Shown: positions 2,081 to 50,728 of the stretch, in pieces
Layout: each line of letters starts with the position of its first letter
Position numbering within the stretch: position 1 is the first letter of the stretch
Source: Candidatus Peribacteria bacterium
GTDB lineage: Bacteria; Patescibacteriota; Gracilibacteria; Peribacterales; Peribacteraceae
Assembly (NCBI GenBank): GCA_943355155.1
Contig: CALREJ010000003.1
Location: 1 to 50,729 of the forward strand
Direction: 5' to 3'
DNA length: 50,729 nt
Translations under genes and position numbers: made by a program
The notes under the pieces: generated by a model
Database searches by the model: none
Seen by the model: only the letters and a program-made list of their open reading frames with translations
What the model was told of the DNA's origin: nothing

Positions 2081-4459
2081 TTACTCTGATGTCAGTAGCT
2101 CCTGAATGCCTTTGAGAGTGTCCACAACGGACAAACCTTTTCCACCTTTTGTTTGAAGATGTGCGAGAACAGTGTCTCCGCAGTAGAGACCGCATTCGCC
2201 GGATTTGATCCGTCTGAAATCGTGAGGGATGAGTTCGAGTGGACCCCTGTTTCGCTCTCGCTCCATTGGATGCTCTTCTCCGAACCGCGCAACTCTTGCA
2301 AGCAGTCTGGAAAGAGATTCTCTTTCACTCCTGACAAGATCTGTAATAGACGAATACCCCTGAGGGCTCAGGTACATCTCACTTTCCGTGAGTGCCTGTT
2401 CAATCACCAAAGCGAACTGACGTGGATCATGATACCGGATAGCTCTTGCACTGTGACGTTGAAGCCAGCTGACAGTAATTCCCTCTGCAGGAAAATCTTC
2501 AAGGGTAATGGGCTGATTCAAAACGTACGCCGCACGACTATGATCATCACTCACCACAAACTGCACACGCAAACTTTCGATGGTAACGATTGTGTAATGC
2601 CCTGTCTCGACTTCTGAAAAACTCGGCCGCTGCCCGCTGCCTGTTGCAAATTCAGCATGACCGATCAGTTCGCCGTGCGCAAGGAGTGTATTACGGATAA
2701 TTCTTAGACGTGGCAGTCTGTCTGTTCCTGTCGGTGGGTCGACCTCTGCTCCACCCTCACCGTTTCCACCGGCCCCGTGTTCCTGCGCCAGATTTCCATC
2801 AATAACTCTCGTGGTAAAATAACGCTGTTCCAGCTCTGCCGAACTCGGCAGTATCCACGCTCGCCAGTTGCCCAACTCATCACCGGCATACGATTCGAAT
2901 CCGAGAACAGATAACTCCCCCATAAGCCCGTTCAAAAATTCAGGAGAAGCTTCCTGCATGATGCGAGGAATCTGCATCAGGCGACTGAACGCATCGGGCA
3001 TCAACAGAAGCAGTTGATCGTTGTAGCGAACAATGGGCGCAGTTTGCAGCAGTTCAGGACGAGCAAGCAGTGCCGGAAATACAGTGCGAATACGTTCTTC
3101 GAGCGATGCATGGAGTGGTGGAACGAGACGACGAATGCTCTCGAGAGATTCCTGAACGGACACTTCTGGACAGCTTGTCACATAGTCCGGCGCATCTGCA
3201 TGTATGATTCTTCCATCTTCATACAGATGAAGTTCCTGTTCTCTCCCGTCACAAAATTGCGATAGAGAAATACGATGGCTTTCTCCATCGACCATCAGAG
3301 AAAGTGTGGGCTGGCTGCCACCTACAGCAATGTAATACATCTGTAGATTGCTGCCACAGATCTCATCGACACTTCGGGTGAGCTCCACAGATGATGTCGG
3401 ATCAAGCAAAAAAATTTGTTCCTGTTCCAGACGTGCCGCCATACTTTGAAGTTGTCTCTGTTCCTGCAATGCAGGCATCAGGAAAATCTCCAGATAATCA
3501 AAGACTGCTTTCATCACTCTTTCACAGTCCTGCTCAATCAAACTTGGTTCTGTACTTTTTACTGAAGTGATCGGATGAAATGGGGTTTTTCTACCTTGCG
3601 TTTCTTTTTTGAGGAGGACATGCATATTCTCCATTACATCATGAAATTTTGTGATATCAACATCCCGCAGTACTTGGTACAGAACCGTTTCCACCAGTGG
3701 ATCGTGTAGGTTGAGATTCATTTCCTGCATCTCGGATTGTGTGCGCATTTCCCGCGCTATCTCTATCAATTTCTGCGTGGCGATCAGCACCGCATCCATC
3801 TTTGAATTCTCTGTGTACCAACTCATTTCCCTATTATTGAAAAATCGCTCTTGGAGAGTAGAAGACAAGTCACTCAGGAGTGTACGGAACTCTGCCGCAG
3901 ACTGAGCTGCTGATTCCCTGTTTTCATAGACATCTCTGTAGCACGTCACCAGCTGGCTCCAATGATCCGATGCGTTGAGCCACTGATCCACTGTTTCCAT
4001 GATTGCAACTGTTCCATGAATAATTCCTGCGGAAGATCCTGTTTGCGCTTTTTCTTGAAAGATCTTCTGTGTTGCTGCCAGCGCCCCTTCAAATGTTATA
4101 CGTCCATCCGGATCATTCAGGAGCCACCTCGCGCATTGAGCAGATGTGCAGAAAAGCTCTGCTTTTTCGTATTTCGTTGCATCAGCAATATCCAGATTTC
4201 GCAAATATTGCCCTGCAACACGTGCATCTCCCCTATCTATTACTAGTGGCCGCACAGGAGCACCTTGTGTTCCTGCACATGCTCCATTCAATGCATCGTA
4301 GTAACGATCGGCGAGTAGTCTTTCAATGGCACGCAAAGTGGCTTCTTCTGGCACCATTGCTTCACCCTGCTTTCCAGCAATTTCCGTGCGCAGTGTGCTG
4401 GCTCTTCCCTCTAATTCTTCATTTGTCAGCCGATCGAGTGCGTTTTCTGTTTCACTCAC
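2081..4459 (-). CDS. Large hypothetical protein (792 aa)
   Basis: Long uninterrupted acidic, helical ORF with a Gly-rich linker; GTG start with TTGACA upstream. Confidence 0.8.
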   Translation of the reverse strand: MSETENALDRLTNEELEGRASTLRTEIAGKQGEAMVPEEATLRAIERLLADRYYDALNGACAGTQGAPVRPLVIDRGDARVAGQYLRNLDIADATKYEKAELFCTSAQCARWLLNDPDGRITFEGALAATQKIFQEKAQTGSSAGIIHGTVAIMETVDQWLNASDHWSQLVTCYRDVYENRESAAQSAAEFRTLLSDLSSTLQERFFNNREMSWYTENSKMDAVLIATQKLIEIAREMRTQSEMQEMNLNLHDPLVETVLYQVLRDVDITKFHDVMENMHVLLKKETQGRKTPFHPITSVKSTEPSLIEQDCERVMKAVFDYLEIFLMPALQEQRQLQSMAARLEQEQIFLLDPTSSVELTRSVDEICGSNLQMYYIAVGGSQPTLSLMVDGESHRISLSQFCDGREQELHLYEDGRIIHADAPDYVTSCPEVSVQESLESIRRLVPPLHASLEERIRTVFPALLARPELLQTAPIVRYNDQLLLLMPDAFSRLMQIPRIMQEASPEFLNGLMGELSVLGFESYAGDELGNWRAWILPSSAELEQRYFTTRVIDGNLAQEHGAGGNGEGGAEVDPPTGTDRLPRLRIIRNTLLAHGELIGHAEFATGSGQRPSFSEVETGHYTIVTIESLRVQFVVSDDHSRAAYVLNQPITLEDFPAEGITVSWLQRHSARAIRYHDPRQFALVIEQALTESEMYLSPQGYSSITDLVRSERESLSRLLARVARFGEEHPMERERNRGPLELIPHDFRRIKSGECGLYCGDTVLAHLQTKGGKGLSVVDTLKGIQELLTSE

Positions 4460-4548
4460 AAAAATAATAAAGCATATTTACTTATATATGTCAATATTCT
4501 GAGGGTGAATTCTTCCTCAAAGTACAGAGCACTTCCCAAGCGCTCCTG

Positions 4549-4899
4549 CTATTTTGTCTCAACGACGTACCCAATAAGTTTCTTGATTTTCCCATCCCTC
4601 ATTTCAAACACATCGCAAAAGACTAAATGCATGATAACACCGCCTTTCTTCTGGGTCTGCACAGTTCCTTCCGCAATCACAATATCATTCTCCTCCGTCA
4701 TGCGAGTGACCCTCACAATCGGCATGCCTTCGAATGCATCATTTTCAATTTCGTTATCAAACTCCTCTTTGCCGACATGGTAGGAAAGGCCGGGCATATC
4801 CCACACGATGTCATCTGTCAGACAGGAGAGGATCTGCACATGGTCTGACTTATTAAAGCCTTCGATGAATTTCTCAATTGTTTTCTTATTGTCTGACAT
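4549..4899 (-). CDS. SnoaL-like / NTF2-family protein
   Basis: ILSCLTDDIVWDMPG and FCDVFEMRDGKIKKL patterns. Confidence 0.9.
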   Translation of the reverse strand: MSDNKKTIEKFIEGFNKSDHVQILSCLTDDIVWDMPGLSYHVGKEEFDNEIENDAFEGMPIVRVTRMTEENDIVIAEGTVQTQKKGGVIMHLVFCDVFEMRDGKIKKLIGYVVETK

Positions 4900-4956
4900 A
4901 GAGCGATGTGATGATACCTAGGTGCATTTCCGCTTACCAGTAGCTAAGCTCGCATC

Positions 4957-5580
4957 ATGAAACCACTGTATGGCGAACTCGTGTTCATTTTGCTGATCGG
5001 CGTTTTACAGCCTGTGACGGAGATACTGTGGGGCAGCCAAATAGCCACTTATTACAACGGCATTGCCGCTTTTATAGTCATTGCCTATCTGGTATATCGC
5101 CTCGTCCACTCGAAAGAAAATCTACTCTCTTCTTGGGGGTTTCGGGTTGATAATTTCCGGCGATGTCTACTTCCCTACGCTGTACTCACTGTCATCTCCG
5201 CAGTGCTCTTGTATGGGTACGGGCACGCCATGGGGCACACTCTTCCTATAACATTTTGGTACCTGCTGGCTGTGTATCCGCTGTGGGGAATTGCGCAGCA
5301 GTTCGTGCTGCAAAATCTAGTGGCGAGGAATCTCGAACAGCTTCTCCCCGTTCTCCCCATTCGTTCTTTCGTTGTGGCCACTATTTTTGCGTGCGCGCAT
5401 ATCCCCTCTCTGGAACTTTTCATTCTGACTTTCGTGGCCGGTTTTATCTTTACGTACCTCTATCACCGTTACCCCAATCTCTTCTGCCTCGGTATTGCCC
5501 ACGGTATTGTCGGGGCCCTCGCCTTTCACCTTGTCCTCGGGCAAAACCAATGGGAAATCCTCATGCGATATTTTTCGTGA
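4957..5580 (+). CDS. CPBP/Abi-family intramembrane protease-like protein
   Basis: Multiple TM helices with FACAH and IAHG motifs; QQ stands where the canonical EE is expected. Confidence 0.75.
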   Translation: MKPLYGELVFILLIGVLQPVTEILWGSQIATYYNGIAAFIVIAYLVYRLVHSKENLLSSWGFRVDNFRRCLLPYAVLTVISAVLLYGYGHAMGHTLPITFWYLLAVYPLWGIAQQFVLQNLVARNLEQLLPVLPIRSFVVATIFACAHIPSLELFILTFVAGFIFTYLYHRYPNLFCLGIAHGIVGALAFHLVLGQNQWEILMRYFS

Positions 5581-5587
5581 GTTTGGG

Positions 5588-5616
5588 TGGAGCGGGTTAC
5601 TGGAATCTATTACAAC
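5588..5616 (-). repeat. tRNA-Gly 3'-end fragment / att-like 29-bp direct repeat, copy 1
   Basis: TGGAGCGGGTTACTGGAATCTATTACAAC is identical to 6363-6391; its reverse complement ends GATTCCAGTAACCCGCTCCA. Confidence 0.9.
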
Positions 5617-5711
5617 CTTTGAGGGGAGCATGTTCGGCATTAATTCTATCTAAGTTCATGAATAGTAATTGTGAAATTGACTAAATAAAAATAATATGTT
5701 ATAAAACACTC

Positions 5712-6236
5712 ATGGCAAAGATACTACTTGAGGAAGCGAAACTGAACCCTGCATTTAGACAGAAATACCTGAATCAAATTGATCTGGGGCCAATGCGGCA
5801 GTATGTTTCAGAGATTCTTTATCAGCCAAATCAAGCTAGGAATGTTCCAAGAGCAGCCGCTGCTTCGTTTTCAAATCTAGCACATAGCTTACTTTTAAAA
5901 TACCATCCTTCACAGATAGTTGTTTATCCGTCTCTATTCGAGAAGCAGCCGTACAATGACAATGACGATAACATCCTTTCCGCCATTCGGGATCATGAAG
6001 GAACTCATGCAAAACAGAAGTTTTATCAACCACGTCTGTATGTCGGTCACCAATTTGCCTTTTGCCGTCCTACTAAAAAGATTAGAGCAATACTTGAAAT
6101 TAGGGCGTATCAATATCAAAAATTTATTGCCGCATCGGAAAAGCTACAAATTTCCGAAGGATTGAGGAGCCTCATCGAAGAACGTATCGCAATGTACAGA
6201 AATTTGCTTGCTCAGGTAAAACAAGAGCGAGCGTAG
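5712..6236 (+). CDS. Hypothetical protein with HExxH zinc-metallopeptidase-like motif
   Basis: HEGTH followed by E..AY..Q; AT-rich; lies between tRNA-fragment repeats. Confidence 0.65.
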   Translation: MAKILLEEAKLNPAFRQKYLNQIDLGPMRQYVSEILYQPNQARNVPRAAAASFSNLAHSLLLKYHPSQIVVYPSLFEKQPYNDNDDNILSAIRDHEGTHAKQKFYQPRLYVGHQFAFCRPTKKIRAILEIRAYQYQKFIAASEKLQISEGLRSLIEERIAMYRNLLAQVKQERA

Positions 6237-6247
6237 TCTGAAGATTC

Positions 6248-6316
6248 TGGAGCGGGTGACGGGAATCCGTCTTCGCTCTCACTGCTGTTCGAGCTACGCC
6301 GAGACAGGTCGAACCC
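6248..6316 (-). pseudogene. tRNA-Gly 3' fragment (T-arm, acceptor strand, CCA) interrupted by a 43-bp palindromic element
   Basis: Minus strand reads GGGTTCGA-[insert 6266-6308]-TTCCCGTCACCCGCTCCA. Confidence 0.8.
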
Positions 6317-6336
6317 ATATGCATAAAGCGAAATCG

Positions 6337-6362
6337 CGGCGTAGTCCGCAGACGAAGCCGGA
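6337..6362 (+). repeat. REP-like hairpin (family 2)
   Basis: CGGCGTAGTC-cgca-GACGAAGCCG has the same GTAG...CGAAG architecture as 6266-6308 and 17658-17690. Confidence 0.6.
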
Positions 6363-6391
6363 TGGAGCGGGTTACTGGAATCTATTACAAC
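6363..6391 (-). repeat. tRNA-Gly 3'-end fragment / att-like 29-bp direct repeat, copy 2
   Basis: Identical to 5588-5616. Confidence 0.9.
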
Positions 6392-6405
6392 TATGATGGG
6401 TGCGG

Positions 6406-7323
6406 CTAGGAGTTTATGTCCTTGAGCTGTTTTTCCAAAATTGCATAGGTTCTATCGACAAGCCATCCATTGCTTTCATACAGCCTTGCAGGCCATACCC
6501 ACTTTGCAGTCGATTGCTTCGCCCCTAATTTTTGCATTGCCTGCATTGCTTTAAGTAATAATGCGCTGCCTATTTTTTTGTCTCGGTAGTCCATCAAAAC
6601 TTCCAGCGGCCCAAAGTCACCTTCCTCATTACTGACCTTATATTCGCAGAAACCCACAACTTGATTTCCATCTAAAGCCGCAAACGCGCCACTAGCAGGT
6701 TTCTTATCCGCATCCCAATGATCAAACCATGTTGGATTATCTGTTTGTGAGCGGAAAGTCTGAAGCACATCGAACATGTCGTTTGTATATTTTTGAATTT
6801 GGATTCCTTTTTGTGCCGCAGTTTCGATCTTGTGAAAACTTTGAGCATCAAGCGAGAAATTCTTCAGTTCAATGTACATATCTTTCGTTTCTTCTGTTTC
6901 TTTGTAACCATTCCGCAAAAAGAAATTGAGCAATGCGGTGTACCTCTTGTCGATTCCAGGGAAGAAATAATGATTGCCTGTGTACTTCACTACGTACACT
7001 GACGTAGCGCCTTCTGACTGCATGCTTTTTTCTGCAATCCCAAGCAATTCTGTAGCTACGTCTTCCTGATCTCCATCGACCGCTAGCGCCTTCAGATGTC
7101 CTACATTGTTTACAACCACGAAGGAAACGAAGCCAAGTATGGCATCAGATTCATTCGTTATGAGAACAGTAGTCGCTGATGGTTTGTGAGCATCTTCAAA
7201 TAGAACCCACCGAAAATGGCTCTCCATAGAGACATCGTACTGATAGACACGATCCCAAAGTTGTAACATGGTTGGGATATCTTTTTCCGCCGCTTTTCTT
7301 ACTCGATGACTCATGCAAGACAT
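6406..7323 (-). CDS. Tandem GNAT-family acetyltransferase
   Basis: Two GNAT-like halves; VRKAAEKDIP, GPLEVLMDYRDKKIGSALL and LYESNGW. Confidence 0.85.
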   Translation of the reverse strand: MSCMSHRVRKAAEKDIPTMLQLWDRVYQYDVSMESHFRWVLFEDAHKPSATTVLITNESDAILGFVSFVVVNNVGHLKALAVDGDQEDVATELLGIAEKSMQSEGATSVYVVKYTGNHYFFPGIDKRYTALLNFFLRNGYKETEETKDMYIELKNFSLDAQSFHKIETAAQKGIQIQKYTNDMFDVLQTFRSQTDNPTWFDHWDADKKPASGAFAALDGNQVVGFCEYKVSNEEGDFGPLEVLMDYRDKKIGSALLLKAMQAMQKLGAKQSTAKWVWPARLYESNGWLVDRTYAILEKQLKDINS

Positions 7324-7392
7324 TCTAGTTGTATTCCGTTTACGGGTACATCTTTAAAGAGTCTGTGATTGCCAAATTGAATTGGTTTTTGG

Positions 7393-7466
7393 TGGAGCGG
7401 GTAGCGGGAATCGAACCCGCGTCATCAGGTTGGAAACCTGATGTACTACCATTGTACGATACCCGC
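7393..7466 (-). tRNA. tRNA-Gly (anticodon TCC)
   Basis: Acceptor stem GCGGGTA/TACCCGC, anticodon arm TCAGG-TTTCCAA-CCTGA, T-loop GTTCGATTC, encoded CCA. Confidence 0.97.
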
Positions 7467-7585
7467 TTATGAAAATGATCTTAAAGGCTGACGATACCCA
7501 CATGGGTGAAACGCCCGAGCACTATACCGCAACACATTGCTGTTTTCCACAGACTTTGAATCATGAAATCCGCTCTGTATCTCAC

Positions 7586-8212
7586 TCATTTTATTTCTCC
7601 TGCTCGCTTTTTCCGAAGCAACTTACGCGTCGACCAAGGATGTGCATCTTCTTTGTTAAATCCTAATTTTACTGCACATTCAACCAGTAATGCATAACTA
7701 TCAGCCTCTATCTCTAAATATGGTCGAATATTAATATTGCCTCCATTGTGTCTTAAAAGAGTATCAATTTCGATACGCACTCCACCATTTCTGAGCGAAA
7801 TTCTATCCTTCTCGATTTCTTGGTGTTCCTGATGTCCAGATTCAATAAAAAATTGTCGCATTCTACAAAAAAGTTGATCCGCTCTCTCGCCTTCATTTGG
7901 ACATAATACGACTTCAATTTCTTCGCACACACGAATCTTTTTTGCCCAATCATGATCACCAAGCTCTGGAATATACTTTTTTCTCTTTAATTTTTCTGTT
8001 TTCTTCACAACTCCAGTTTCCAGTTGATGACGAACTCTCAGTGATCTTCCATTATCTCGCAACTGCCAATCCGGCGTATCAAAATACACGGCATGCACTC
8101 TCCCATTGTAATATTCAACAAAACCCAAATTTCGTAGCTCCTGCTGCATTTTTTTGGGATCTATATCAAGAATCTTCGTCTCGATCTCAAACTGCGGCTG
8201 ATTGGGGTTCAT
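7586..8212 (-). CDS. CYTH-domain (triphosphate tunnel) protein
   Basis: N-terminal EIETK (ExExK), YFDTPD, LRVR, KDR and YLEIE. Start moved to ATG 8212. Confidence 0.85.
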   Translation of the reverse strand: MNPNQPQFEIETKILDIDPKKMQQELRNLGFVEYYNGRVHAVYFDTPDWQLRDNGRSLRVRHQLETGVVKKTEKLKRKKYIPELGDHDWAKKIRVCEEIEVVLCPNEGERADQLFCRMRQFFIESGHQEHQEIEKDRISLRNGGVRIEIDTLLRHNGGNINIRPYLEIEADSYALLVECAVKLGFNKEDAHPWSTRKLLRKKRAGEIK

Positions 8213-23132: not shown

Positions 23133-24194
23133 ATGCACACACGCGCTCTCCCCAAAGACACCGATCCCCTGCAGGCGGCCAAGGATGCGGGGCTTCATTA
23201 TGTGAGTGACTCGACACCGGGAATTTCGAGACAAAAAAAGGGTGGAAGCTTTTCTTATAAAGATCAGCATGGAAAAAATATTTCCGATCGCACGACGCTC
23301 GAGCGCATTGAAGGCATCGTGATCCCTCCCGCATGGAAAGACGTATGGATTTGCCCCTCCCCGCTCGGACATATTCAGGCAACAGGGAGAGATGAGCGCG
23401 GACGAAAGCAATATCGATACCACGAGCATTGGCAGACTCTCCGGAACCATACCAAGTTTGATAAGATCGTTTCTTTTGGATTCGTACTGCCAAAAATTCG
23501 CATGCAGATTCATGAAGATTTACATGGAAGTGATCTCACAGAAAAAAGATTACTCGCAGCGATCGTGCATTTACTCGATGTCACACACATGCGTGTCGGC
23601 AACGAAGAATACGCAAAGGAAAATCATTCATACGGACTCACGACTCTCCAAAATCGCCATGTGAAGCTGCACGGCAATGAAATCCGTTTTCGGTTCAGTG
23701 GCAAGAGTGGCGTGCATCAGGATATTGATATTCACGACACGCGACTTGCGAATGTGATTAGGGATTGTCAGGAGATTTCCGGTCATGAACTCTTTCATTA
23801 CCTCGATGAAACGAGTGAATGGAAGCCTGTGCATTCGGATCAAGTAAATGCGTATATTCAAAACATCGCCAAAGAACATTTCAGTGCAAAGGATTTTCGC
23901 ACGTGGGGAGGAACGGTGAGCGCGGCAGGATCATTTGTAGACTTGGGTGAAAAGGAAGGTACGCAAATGAAGAAGGCTATTGTGGAAGCCGTAAAACGCG
24001 CAGCCAGCGCACTGGGAAATCGTCCCGCCACCTGTAAAAAATACTATATCGATCCACGAATTATTGTTGCCTATATCGAGCAAGAACTCTGCAGTACTCT
24101 CGAAAAATATCTGAAAGAAAAATCTCAAAAAAGCGACCATGATTTGCATCCACTTGAAAAAGGAGTACACCATGTTTTGCAAAAAAAGCAATAA
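23133..24194 (+). CDS. Bacterial DNA topoisomerase IB
   Basis: IPPAWKDVWI, GRKQYRYH, RVGNE, GKSG, KDFRTW, LGN and the catalytic KYYIDP. Confidence 0.95.
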   Translation: MHTRALPKDTDPLQAAKDAGLHYVSDSTPGISRQKKGGSFSYKDQHGKNISDRTTLERIEGIVIPPAWKDVWICPSPLGHIQATGRDERGRKQYRYHEHWQTLRNHTKFDKIVSFGFVLPKIRMQIHEDLHGSDLTEKRLLAAIVHLLDVTHMRVGNEEYAKENHSYGLTTLQNRHVKLHGNEIRFRFSGKSGVHQDIDIHDTRLANVIRDCQEISGHELFHYLDETSEWKPVHSDQVNAYIQNIAKEHFSAKDFRTWGGTVSAAGSFVDLGEKEGTQMKKAIVEAVKRAASALGNRPATCKKYYIDPRIIVAYIEQELCSTLEKYLKEKSQKSDHDLHPLEKGVHHVLQKKQ

Positions 24195-34568: not shown

Positions 34569-34645
34569 GGACGATTAGCTCAGTTGGTTAGAGCGTTCGA
34601 TTCACATTCGAAAGGTCCCCAGTTCGAATCTGGGATCGTCCACCA
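34569..34645 (+). tRNA. tRNA-Val (anticodon CAC)
   Basis: Acceptor stem GGACGAT/ATCGTCC, anticodon arm TTCGA-TTCACAT-TCGAA, T-loop GTTCGAATC, encoded CCA. Confidence 0.97.
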
Positions 34646-49995: not shown

Positions 49996-50728
49996 GGGTC
50001 TCGACTAGATTAGAGAATTCTCTACTCTAGTTCTGCTTATGCCAAAGCCAAAGAACAAGTATCTGAACCATTCCCATATTTCGGAGAAGGTTTTTCGTAA
50101 TCTTTTGCGATATTTTTGTCATGATGAAACAGCAGCAAAAGCAGCGACGTACACAGGGCTGCATCGCAACACGGTGAACAGGATGTATATGCTCTTGCGA
50201 AAGCGCATGGCAGAGATGAGCATTGCAGAAGCACAGGAGCTTGGAGAGTTTGAGATTGATGAATCGTACTTTGGTGCCAGAAGAATTCGTGGCAAGCGTG
50301 GAAGAGGTGCAGCGGGAAAAACACCGGTCTTCGGTGTACTCAAGCGTGGAGGGAAGGTCTATGTGAATATCGTGAAGAACTGTTCCAGAGCACAGCTGTT
50401 GCCCATTATTCAGGGGAAGGCACTGCAAGGCTCCACGATCTACTCAGACGGCTGGAGAGCCTATGATGGCCTCATTCTCAACGGCTACGATCATTACAGA
50501 GTGCATCATCACGAGAATGAATTTGCGCGAGGGAAGAATCATATCAACGGCATCGAGAGCTTCTGGAGCTTTGCCAAAAGAAGACTCAGAAAATTCAATG
50601 GCATCACTTCAGACACATTTCATCTGCATCTCAAAGAATCTGAATTTCGATGGAATCACCGTCACTCCAATCTCTATGCTATACTTCTTCATGTTCTGAA
50701 AAGAACACCTCTAAACTAGTCTAGACCC
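49996..50728 (+). mobile_element. IS1595-family (IS1016-like) insertion sequence, 733 bp
   Basis: Terminal inverted repeats: GGGTCTCGACTAGATTAGAG (49996-50015) matches the reverse complement of 50709-50728, GGGTCTAGACTAGTTTAGAG, at 18/20. Confidence 0.93.
50039..50719 (+). CDS. IS1595-family transposase
   Basis: EIDESYFG, GKRGRGAAGK, IYSDGW.AY, HINGIESFWS and E.EFRWN. Confidence 0.96.
   Translation: MPKPKNKYLNHSHISEKVFRNLLRYFCHDETAAKAATYTGLHRNTVNRMYMLLRKRMAEMSIAEAQELGEFEIDESYFGARRIRGKRGRGAAGKTPVFGVLKRGGKVYVNIVKNCSRAQLLPIIQGKALQGSTIYSDGWRAYDGLILNGYDHYRVHHHENEFARGKNHINGIESFWSFAKRRLRKFNGITSDTFHLHLKESEFRWNHRHSNLYAILLHVLKRTPLN

Follow-up and report, generated by a model that had tools for sequence, protein, structure and literature searches.

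Small gene units behind tRNA-Gly in Peribacteraceae end in arms of very probable large serine recombinase origin

Directly behind an intact tRNA-Gly(TCC), the Candidatus Peribacteria genome studied here carries single genes separated by short pieces resembling a tRNA-Gly 3' end, which raises the question of which enzyme left these pieces and whether the genes between them travel as units. The stretch that was analysed, termed the window, spans 50,729 nucleotides and belongs to a genome (G000) of 1.18 Mb with 48% GC and 88.6% completeness. A preliminary description had proposed cassettes delimited by displaced tRNA 3' ends and inserted at the T-loop by a tyrosine integrase acting in trans. The elements on which it was built, i.e., the intact tRNA-Gly(TCC), two identical 29-mers (6363-6391 and 5588-5616) 775 bp apart, and a third fragment, are all present as claimed. 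The features of the locus are the following, with the crossover dinucleotide 7398-7397 corresponding to positions -6/-5 counted from the end of CCA:

7393-7466, minus strand: tRNA-Gly(TCC), its 3' end being the putative attB/attL, with the predicted crossover dinucleotide at 7398-7397
7326-7392, minus strand: left-end module of the GNAT unit, beginning at the first base past CCA
7328-7347, plus strand: inverted half-site, a copy of the right-end arm with a spacing 5 nt shorter (attB-like)
6406-7323, minus strand: GNAT acetyltransferase gene (Pfam PF00583), cargo of unit 1, its stop codon lying within the tail motif
6363-6425, plus strand: displaced LSR-gene 3' end, reading WSGLLESITTMMGAARSLCP-stop, no gene by itself
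6363-6391, minus strand: arm 1 (attR-type), an element-side arm plus about 10 nt in common with the tRNA
6266-6362, no strand assigned: paired-palindrome repeat at the CCA end, with relatives elsewhere in G000 and in other genomes
6248-6316, minus strand: tRNA-Gly T-arm/acceptor fragment of another type, its T-loop split by the right-hand palindrome, without LSR arm
5712-6236, plus strand: orphan 174-aa HExxH ORF, cargo of unit 2, for which a zincin-like fold is a lead only
5588-5616, minus strand: arm 2 (attR-type), the identical 29-mer, not colinear with the common tail past -30
4922-4941, plus strand: second inverted half-site, without a preceding CCA junction, just before a SnoaL gene

The 29-mer is the longest exact direct repeat within 5501-7500, compared to 9-15 nt in 200 shuffles, and no further copy was found in G000 with up to 5 mismatches allowed. 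Since a public contig, possibly from the source sample, covers 3500-7422 with zero differences and a flat depth of 10.4, an assembly artefact is unlikely. An Rfam search of 4800-7600 yielded the tRNA alone above the gathering score. As already stated in the preliminary description, no integrase is evident in the window, neither by eye in the ORF translations nor in a Pfam scan of 16 window ORFs; a bacterial topoisomerase IB gene (23133-24194) and an IS1595-family transposase gene (50039-50719) are encoded further along. The 174-aa ORF carries the motif HEGTH, has no Pfam match and, among 27 candidates, has itself as sole homologue. A homologue of the GNAT protein was identified in 1 of 199 relatives, where it is frameshifted and located behind tRNA-Ser and does not represent the same unit, and the window's own cargo genes were not found as a cassette in the other genomes searched.

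The repeat itself is far from unique to this assembly. Allowing up to 3 mismatches, the 29-nt pattern was found in 41 of 200 genomes of the family (reversed control, 0), and a related pattern occurred in 7 of 40 family genomes and in none of 260 genomes representing other families of the class. A related motif pattern was also present in 9 metagenome stretches, and viral contigs contained 0 exact matches. From 38 of the 40 other motif-positive genomes, 40 regions were fetched: a same-strand tRNA-Gly lies upstream of the arm in 27 and a tRNA-Thr in 1, while 1 region contains no motif copy passing the filter. The other 11 regions show neither tRNA; of these, 7 begin no more than 2.1 kb from the arm, 2 have the tRNA inverted upstream and 1 has tRNA-Arg. 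In two loci, L074 (G002) and L086 (G175), the arm is found upstream of tRNA-Gly(TCC), at a distance of 0.8-1.1 kb and on the other strand, and in G002 this tRNA appears flipped relative to the flanking genes of G004. Twenty loci chosen by tRNA instead of motif contained 1 clear and 1 diverged arm. Comparison of the locus across relatives, a check proposed at the outset, revealed that both unit number and cargo differ: there are 1 to 6 arm copies per genome or contig, and among five genomes of the same genus, 1 has a unit with other cargo, 3 have none downstream, and 1 has an inverted arm upstream. In 72 copies, the bases between -29 and -1 are highly conserved and those out to -63 less so, with no conservation downstream of CCA; the arm set was picked by its likeness to the motif, and arm conservation is therefore inflated. 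The conserved motif reaches about 63 nt instead of the 29 nt first recognized.

The gene to which this motif is linked encodes a large serine recombinase (LSR) and not, as initially supposed, a tyrosine integrase. In locus L073, tRNA-Gly is directly followed by an antisense gene for a 540-aa LSR with resolvase, recombinase and zinc-ribbon domains (PF00239, PF07508, PF13408), which terminates within the tRNA as WSG-stop. At a distance of 6,653 bp lies the arm, whose antisense strand reads WSGLLESITT... up to a stop at codon 21. Locus L162 shows the identical arrangement over 7,661 bp. Across full elements, the LSR gene is directed at the tRNA and reaches its stop after three codons on the antisense strand of the tRNA, and the antisense strand of the far-end arm continues the LSR frame 17 codons further. 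Elements at Asn, Arg and Gly-CCC tRNAs have in-frame tails of their own, and three LSR genes located off tRNAs read directly through into another tail, two of which (L140 and L161) resemble the Gly tail. Relatives of the Gly-type LSR are encoded in 82 of 200 genomes, and most of 47 LSR loci (partly redundant) terminate at a tRNA, where the antisense of CCA supplies an invariant Trp codon. Within the window, arm 1 is colinear with the common tail; arm 2 has only the 30-nt arm in common with it, and its antisense frame continues without interruption until codon 22, which is a stop (5588-5653, plus strand).

Among the 42 colinear copies, obtained after leaving out 30 of 72 as interrupted or divergent, 35 have a stop at codon 21 (TGA 28, TAA 5, TAG 2). 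Tail changes per codon position amount to 164/92/148, with second positions changing least. With a pN/pS of 0.73 in the tail frame (0.58 distal) and a lower value of 0.53 in one other frame, this ratio alone is not decisive for coding. An AlphaFold2 model of a natural read-through LSR is canonical overall (mean pLDDT 82.5), but with residues 533-568 below 50 it gives no information on the tail. We conclude that the 29-mer arms are very probably of LSR origin. Xer/dif-like and retroelement primer-site readings of the repeats were dropped when the LSR reading frame was found. The Gly-type LSR was not found in G000 at its 88.6% completeness; the genome encodes two LSR genes, 27-28% identical to the Gly type, one of them ending in tRNA-Asp and the other in an atypical tRNA assigned to Ile(GAT). 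It should also be noted that one LSR 3' end (97% identical) is located behind three different tRNAs of G000 (C2:36920-37087, C39:1-168 and C53:5404-5570), two of them at contig ends, the C2 tRNA being a 90-nt Ile(GAT) and the C53 tRNA an Ile(TAT).

The layout of the sites was evaluated in 8 elements, of which 3 are natural and 5 were joined end to end in silico, and inverted symmetry peaks between -6 and -5 (49/96 vs 14-34 at other centres). Counted from this centre, the arm's GTTGTAATA lies at 24-16 and the tRNA's GTTCGATTC at 19-11. According to the accessible part of PMC3783163, the zinc-ribbon motif of the LI integrase is located at 16-24 in attP and at 11-19 in attB, and the LI pseudo-attB consensus favours T17-19, G15 and C11, with which T17, T18, G15 and C11 of the tRNA half-site agree. 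This 5-bp shift, by which the motif is nearer the centre in attB, applies to left arms only and is not evident on right arms. The dyad symmetry and the shifted motif fit the geometry of attP/attB sites of serine integrases. The element/tRNA junction falls near the CCA end instead of in the T-loop, where it was first placed: identity to the resident tRNA 3' end extends over 9-10 nt in 35 of 49 arms, and the 29-mers, previously taken for displaced tRNA 3' ends, have just about 10 nt in common with the tRNA. In the motif-selected set, 129 of 147 informative arm positions are element-type and 12 carry the resident-tRNA base (one copy over 20 nt), and the latter are not explained by a -6/-5 crossover alone.

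These data leave very little room for a tyrosine integrase that inserts cassettes in trans at the T-loop. While tRNA 3' fragments are the classical mark of such enzymes (PMC4383910, in the sections available) and the middle fragment, which reaches the T-arm, could be one, the arms differ from the tRNA up to -10 (by the counts above, which carry the selection bias of the set) and continue the LSR reading frame, and no tyrosine recombinase is encoded among 75 cargo ORFs of the units described below. A search for a co-occurring tyrosine recombinase, likewise proposed earlier, returned a 309-aa protein on contig C60 as the only PF00589 match of G000. A second, non-canonical tRNA-Gly(TCC), missed by ARAGORN, was observed at L094:1142-1213 and L079:5345-5416 (Rfam, 49 and 47 bits); as its acceptor end matches the 3' part of the arm, it is a possible source of the arm.

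The fragment at 6248-6316 is of a different kind. It consists of 6248-6267 plus GGGTTCGA at 6309-6316 with the palindrome in between, lacks an LSR arm, and differs from the arm and the resident tRNA alike. Relatives of the repeat at 6266-6362 occur behind other G000 tRNAs and in other genomes, and we infer that the fragment is a tRNA end brought in with the palindromic repeat. Because the hairpin piece of 115 bp belongs to a palindromic repeat that is dispersed, the window comprises two arm-ended units, not three cassettes. About a dozen G000 tRNAs are directly followed by one palindromic repeat family (e.g., C2:30147, C4:11424, C10:1309, C25:8760 and position 34645 of the window), and several others have a perfect palindrome around CCA.

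The suggestion that the units are about 1 kb long and nearly all without a recombinase was borne out beyond the window. The 56 arm-ended units have a median length of 1,062 bp, 54 being shorter than 4 kb; an LSR is carried by 1 of them, and there is 1 recombinase among the 75 cargo ORFs (at least 120 aa). A Pfam family could be assigned to 39 of these ORFs, which are of mixed kinds including GNATs, small kinases and hydrolases; one ORF (L071:8556-9446) matches the aminoglycoside/hydroxyurea kinase family (PF04655). One unit, encoding a RibD_C protein, occurs in two genera with 87% identity over its whole length between base +1 and the tail, being second in a Gly-TCC array in G181 and first at Gly-CCC in G168. 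Right ends consisting of gene plus tail are 91-96% identical across genera, and in two pairs with shared cargo the gene is common and the left ends differ.

Furthermore, two classes of left-end module begin at base +1 ahead of unrelated cargo, and the module of the window's GNAT unit is common to 6 other training units with unrelated cargo. The modules hold an inverted arm copy shortened by 4-5 nt, and 12 of 62 left ends contain an inverted half-site, usually between +36 and +47 (controls: 1 internal window match and 2/62 on the other strand). Among 10 held-out profile matches scoring at least 20, 4 lie exactly 35 nt after an intact CGCTCCA end, 1 follows a decayed end and 5 follow none. A strict joint pattern for the left module matched 2 of 200 genomes and is too strict to estimate prevalence. 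No copy of the left-end module was detected within the full elements that were scanned; an internal inverted copy of the element's own arm gave weak matches only (4-5 mismatches, at positions not shared between elements) in 5 of the 6 full or part elements and none in L073. Folding of the left module (z -1.51) and of the 115-bp piece (z -1.05) was no better than that of shuffles. In most units, no left arm of LSR type, as required for a canonical attP, was detected: parent-type left arms above the 99.9% null were found at 2 of 109 junction ends plus one tested apart, a level below which 8 of 30 true arms also fall. The second half-site of the window (4922-4941) possibly marks a decayed older unit, and an Rce1-like gene (4957-5580) sits between it and arm 2. 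In 11 of 62 units (L070, L077, L085, L090, L092, L094, L100-L103 and L105; 0/109 at +40), TTGAC starts the unit within 11 nt of CCA, which suggests a promoter at the very end.

The left ends bear on whether the units are immobile leftovers of successive full LSR islands that lost their left part and kept the last gene or genes together with the right arm. Decay does generate recombinase-less units, since two G186 units retain an LSR 3' remnant at their junctions and truncated LSR genes are present in G208 and G193; the decay of large islands, which the preliminary description had named as a competing origin, thus holds for some units in relatives. The tails still look coding, as expected after recent departure from full elements, the linkage of gene and tail outlives that of the left end in the two pairs with shared cargo, and a three-step route of this kind is the usual origin of tandem CIMEs in the accessible sections of PMC5704250. 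However, random deletion would not give one left module at +1 before unrelated cargo, nor would it produce a unit colinear end to end in two genera and at two tRNAs, and the full elements scanned did not show the module. Three public runs, compared as contigs, showed no joints of a circle or an empty site, which, as contigs drop rare variants, speaks neither for nor against movement. We consider leftovers a rather unlikely explanation of the array as a whole, and, going by their sequences, we lean towards the units being mobile cassettes; probably both routes, cassette movement and island decay, operate.

Movement could also be brought about by DNA uptake and homologous recombination, with arms originally laid down by an LSR and the tRNA and the 63-nt tail serving as anchors. 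G000 encodes a ComEC-family protein (PF03772), some arms have resident-tRNA bases upstream of the predicted crossover, right ends are highly similar in different genera, and no cognate LSR was found in G000. As the anchors are short (63-74 nt) and 75-90% alike, and the inverted half-site with attB-like spacing would be left unexplained, we regard this route as improbable.

On balance, we favour, with modest confidence, the reading that the 29-mers are the element arm of an LSR site together with the displaced C-terminal tail of the enzyme, and that the DNA between them is likely a stack of recombinase-less cassettes inserted in trans; the fragments are thus recombination-site marks and not local duplications, the latter point having been made before. 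With attP inside the LSR gene and a crossover at -6/-5, integration would restore the tRNA and clip the tail of the enzyme. In the right half-site of the host, no more than about 5 nt are fixed; if the half-site downstream of CCA is indeed unconstrained, an occupied tRNA end would stay a target, and each newcomer would push older units outward. Recombinase-less units with a defined left module would move as units, either as circles of their own, given a cognate LSR, or as passengers of a neighbouring full element that later leaves them behind. The arrangement needed for such co-mobilisation exists in G076, where a full Gly-CCC element is stacked ahead of a 1.5-kb recombinase-less unit. For G000, the cognate LSR would have to come on a visiting element. 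More tentatively, and doubtful as a complete scheme, Peribacteraceae may possess an integron-like capture system of one-gene circles with a right arm and a left module, a one-armed regenerating tRNA site, and an enzyme switched by tail clipping. If true, ultra-small candidate-phyla bacteria would gain a defined route for collecting single accessory genes. It would also offer serine integrases whose targets are tRNA ends that stay intact, and since these enzymes apparently need a single conserved host half-site, one site could be loaded repeatedly. Directionality may be controlled by the tail that integration exchanges, a candidate mechanism open to direct testing.

Integrons are arrays of single-gene units with one site each and the tyrosine recombinase IntI beside the array, and their attC sites are single-strand hairpins with R and L boxes. 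The units described here likewise carry single genes, with cargo such as GNATs, small kinases and hydrolases. Unlike integrons, they have no IntI by the array (the PF00589 match of G000 being on C60), are anchored at a tRNA, and have sites resembling double-stranded serine-integrase arms.

The closest published case is that of the Dehalococcoides ssrA islands, as far as described in the accessible part of PMC3146451. These are stacked in tandem behind a tRNA-like 3' end, with 15 of 31 islands lacking the integration module, and they share with our loci an element-side motif beside the direct repeat and a 540-residue serine recombinase (DsiB), encoded on the reverse strand with its 3' end overlapping attL. 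In contrast, the target here is tRNA-Gly and not ssrA (no such fragment lies behind the G000 tmRNA), and the junction is predicted at -6/-5 instead of mid T-loop (PMC3146451, same part). Compared to the six-gene module given there, no second small resolvase was found among the L073 ORFs or the four L162 ORFs scanned. Moreover, our units are mostly 0.5-4 kb long with one or two genes and differ by their conserved coding tail and the left module with its inverted half-site. Similar to CIMEs, which accumulate at a common site and can be mobilised by an adjacent element, the units have lost integration and transfer genes; CIMEs keep the parent attL and attR (PMC5704250, available sections), whereas the units here keep the right arm, and in most of them no parental left arm was detected and the left module is a different one. 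The LSR shares its domain set, the dyad site around a central dinucleotide and the zinc-ribbon positions with LI/A118 integrases (PMC3783163, accessible part), but has its site in the integrase's own 3' end, with one conserved host half-site (the tRNA) and no phage genes seen. Prochlorococcus tycheposons are also tRNA-anchored islands that grow by integration with tRNA-specific integrases and decay, yet 910 of 937 have tyrosine recombinases, and they are larger and often carry replication modules (10.1101/2020.12.28.424599, in the part available).

In the available text of PMC5704250, targeting of gene 3' ends is tied to tyrosine recombinases and that of internal, disrupting sites to serine recombinases, and a 2014 island survey states, in its accessible sections, that tRNA genes were not known as targets of serine recombinases (PMC4383910). 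Partial precedents for serine recombinases at tRNA genes exist in the ssrA islands and in a small share of the tycheposons. A literature search covering the main texts of openly accessible papers found no paper on a tRNA-Gly LSR cassette system; supplements of LSR and island catalogues could list such sites. The main text of PMC10083194 has no occurrence of 'tRNA', and the accessible part of 10.1101/2025.09.16.676606 added nothing on the system.

Finally, two observations concern other elements at these sites. Locus L165 (G193:C8) is a decayed Gly-CCC element with a truncated LSR and four further fragments, in which a 349-aa ORF resembles a reverse transcriptase as judged by eye. Furthermore, a small GIY-YIG gene with palindromic flanks, located behind tRNA-Gly or tRNA-Thr in L070, L076, L083, L095, L103, L104 and L106, represents a second, different element at the same site, sometimes accompanied by a copy of the resident tRNA end.
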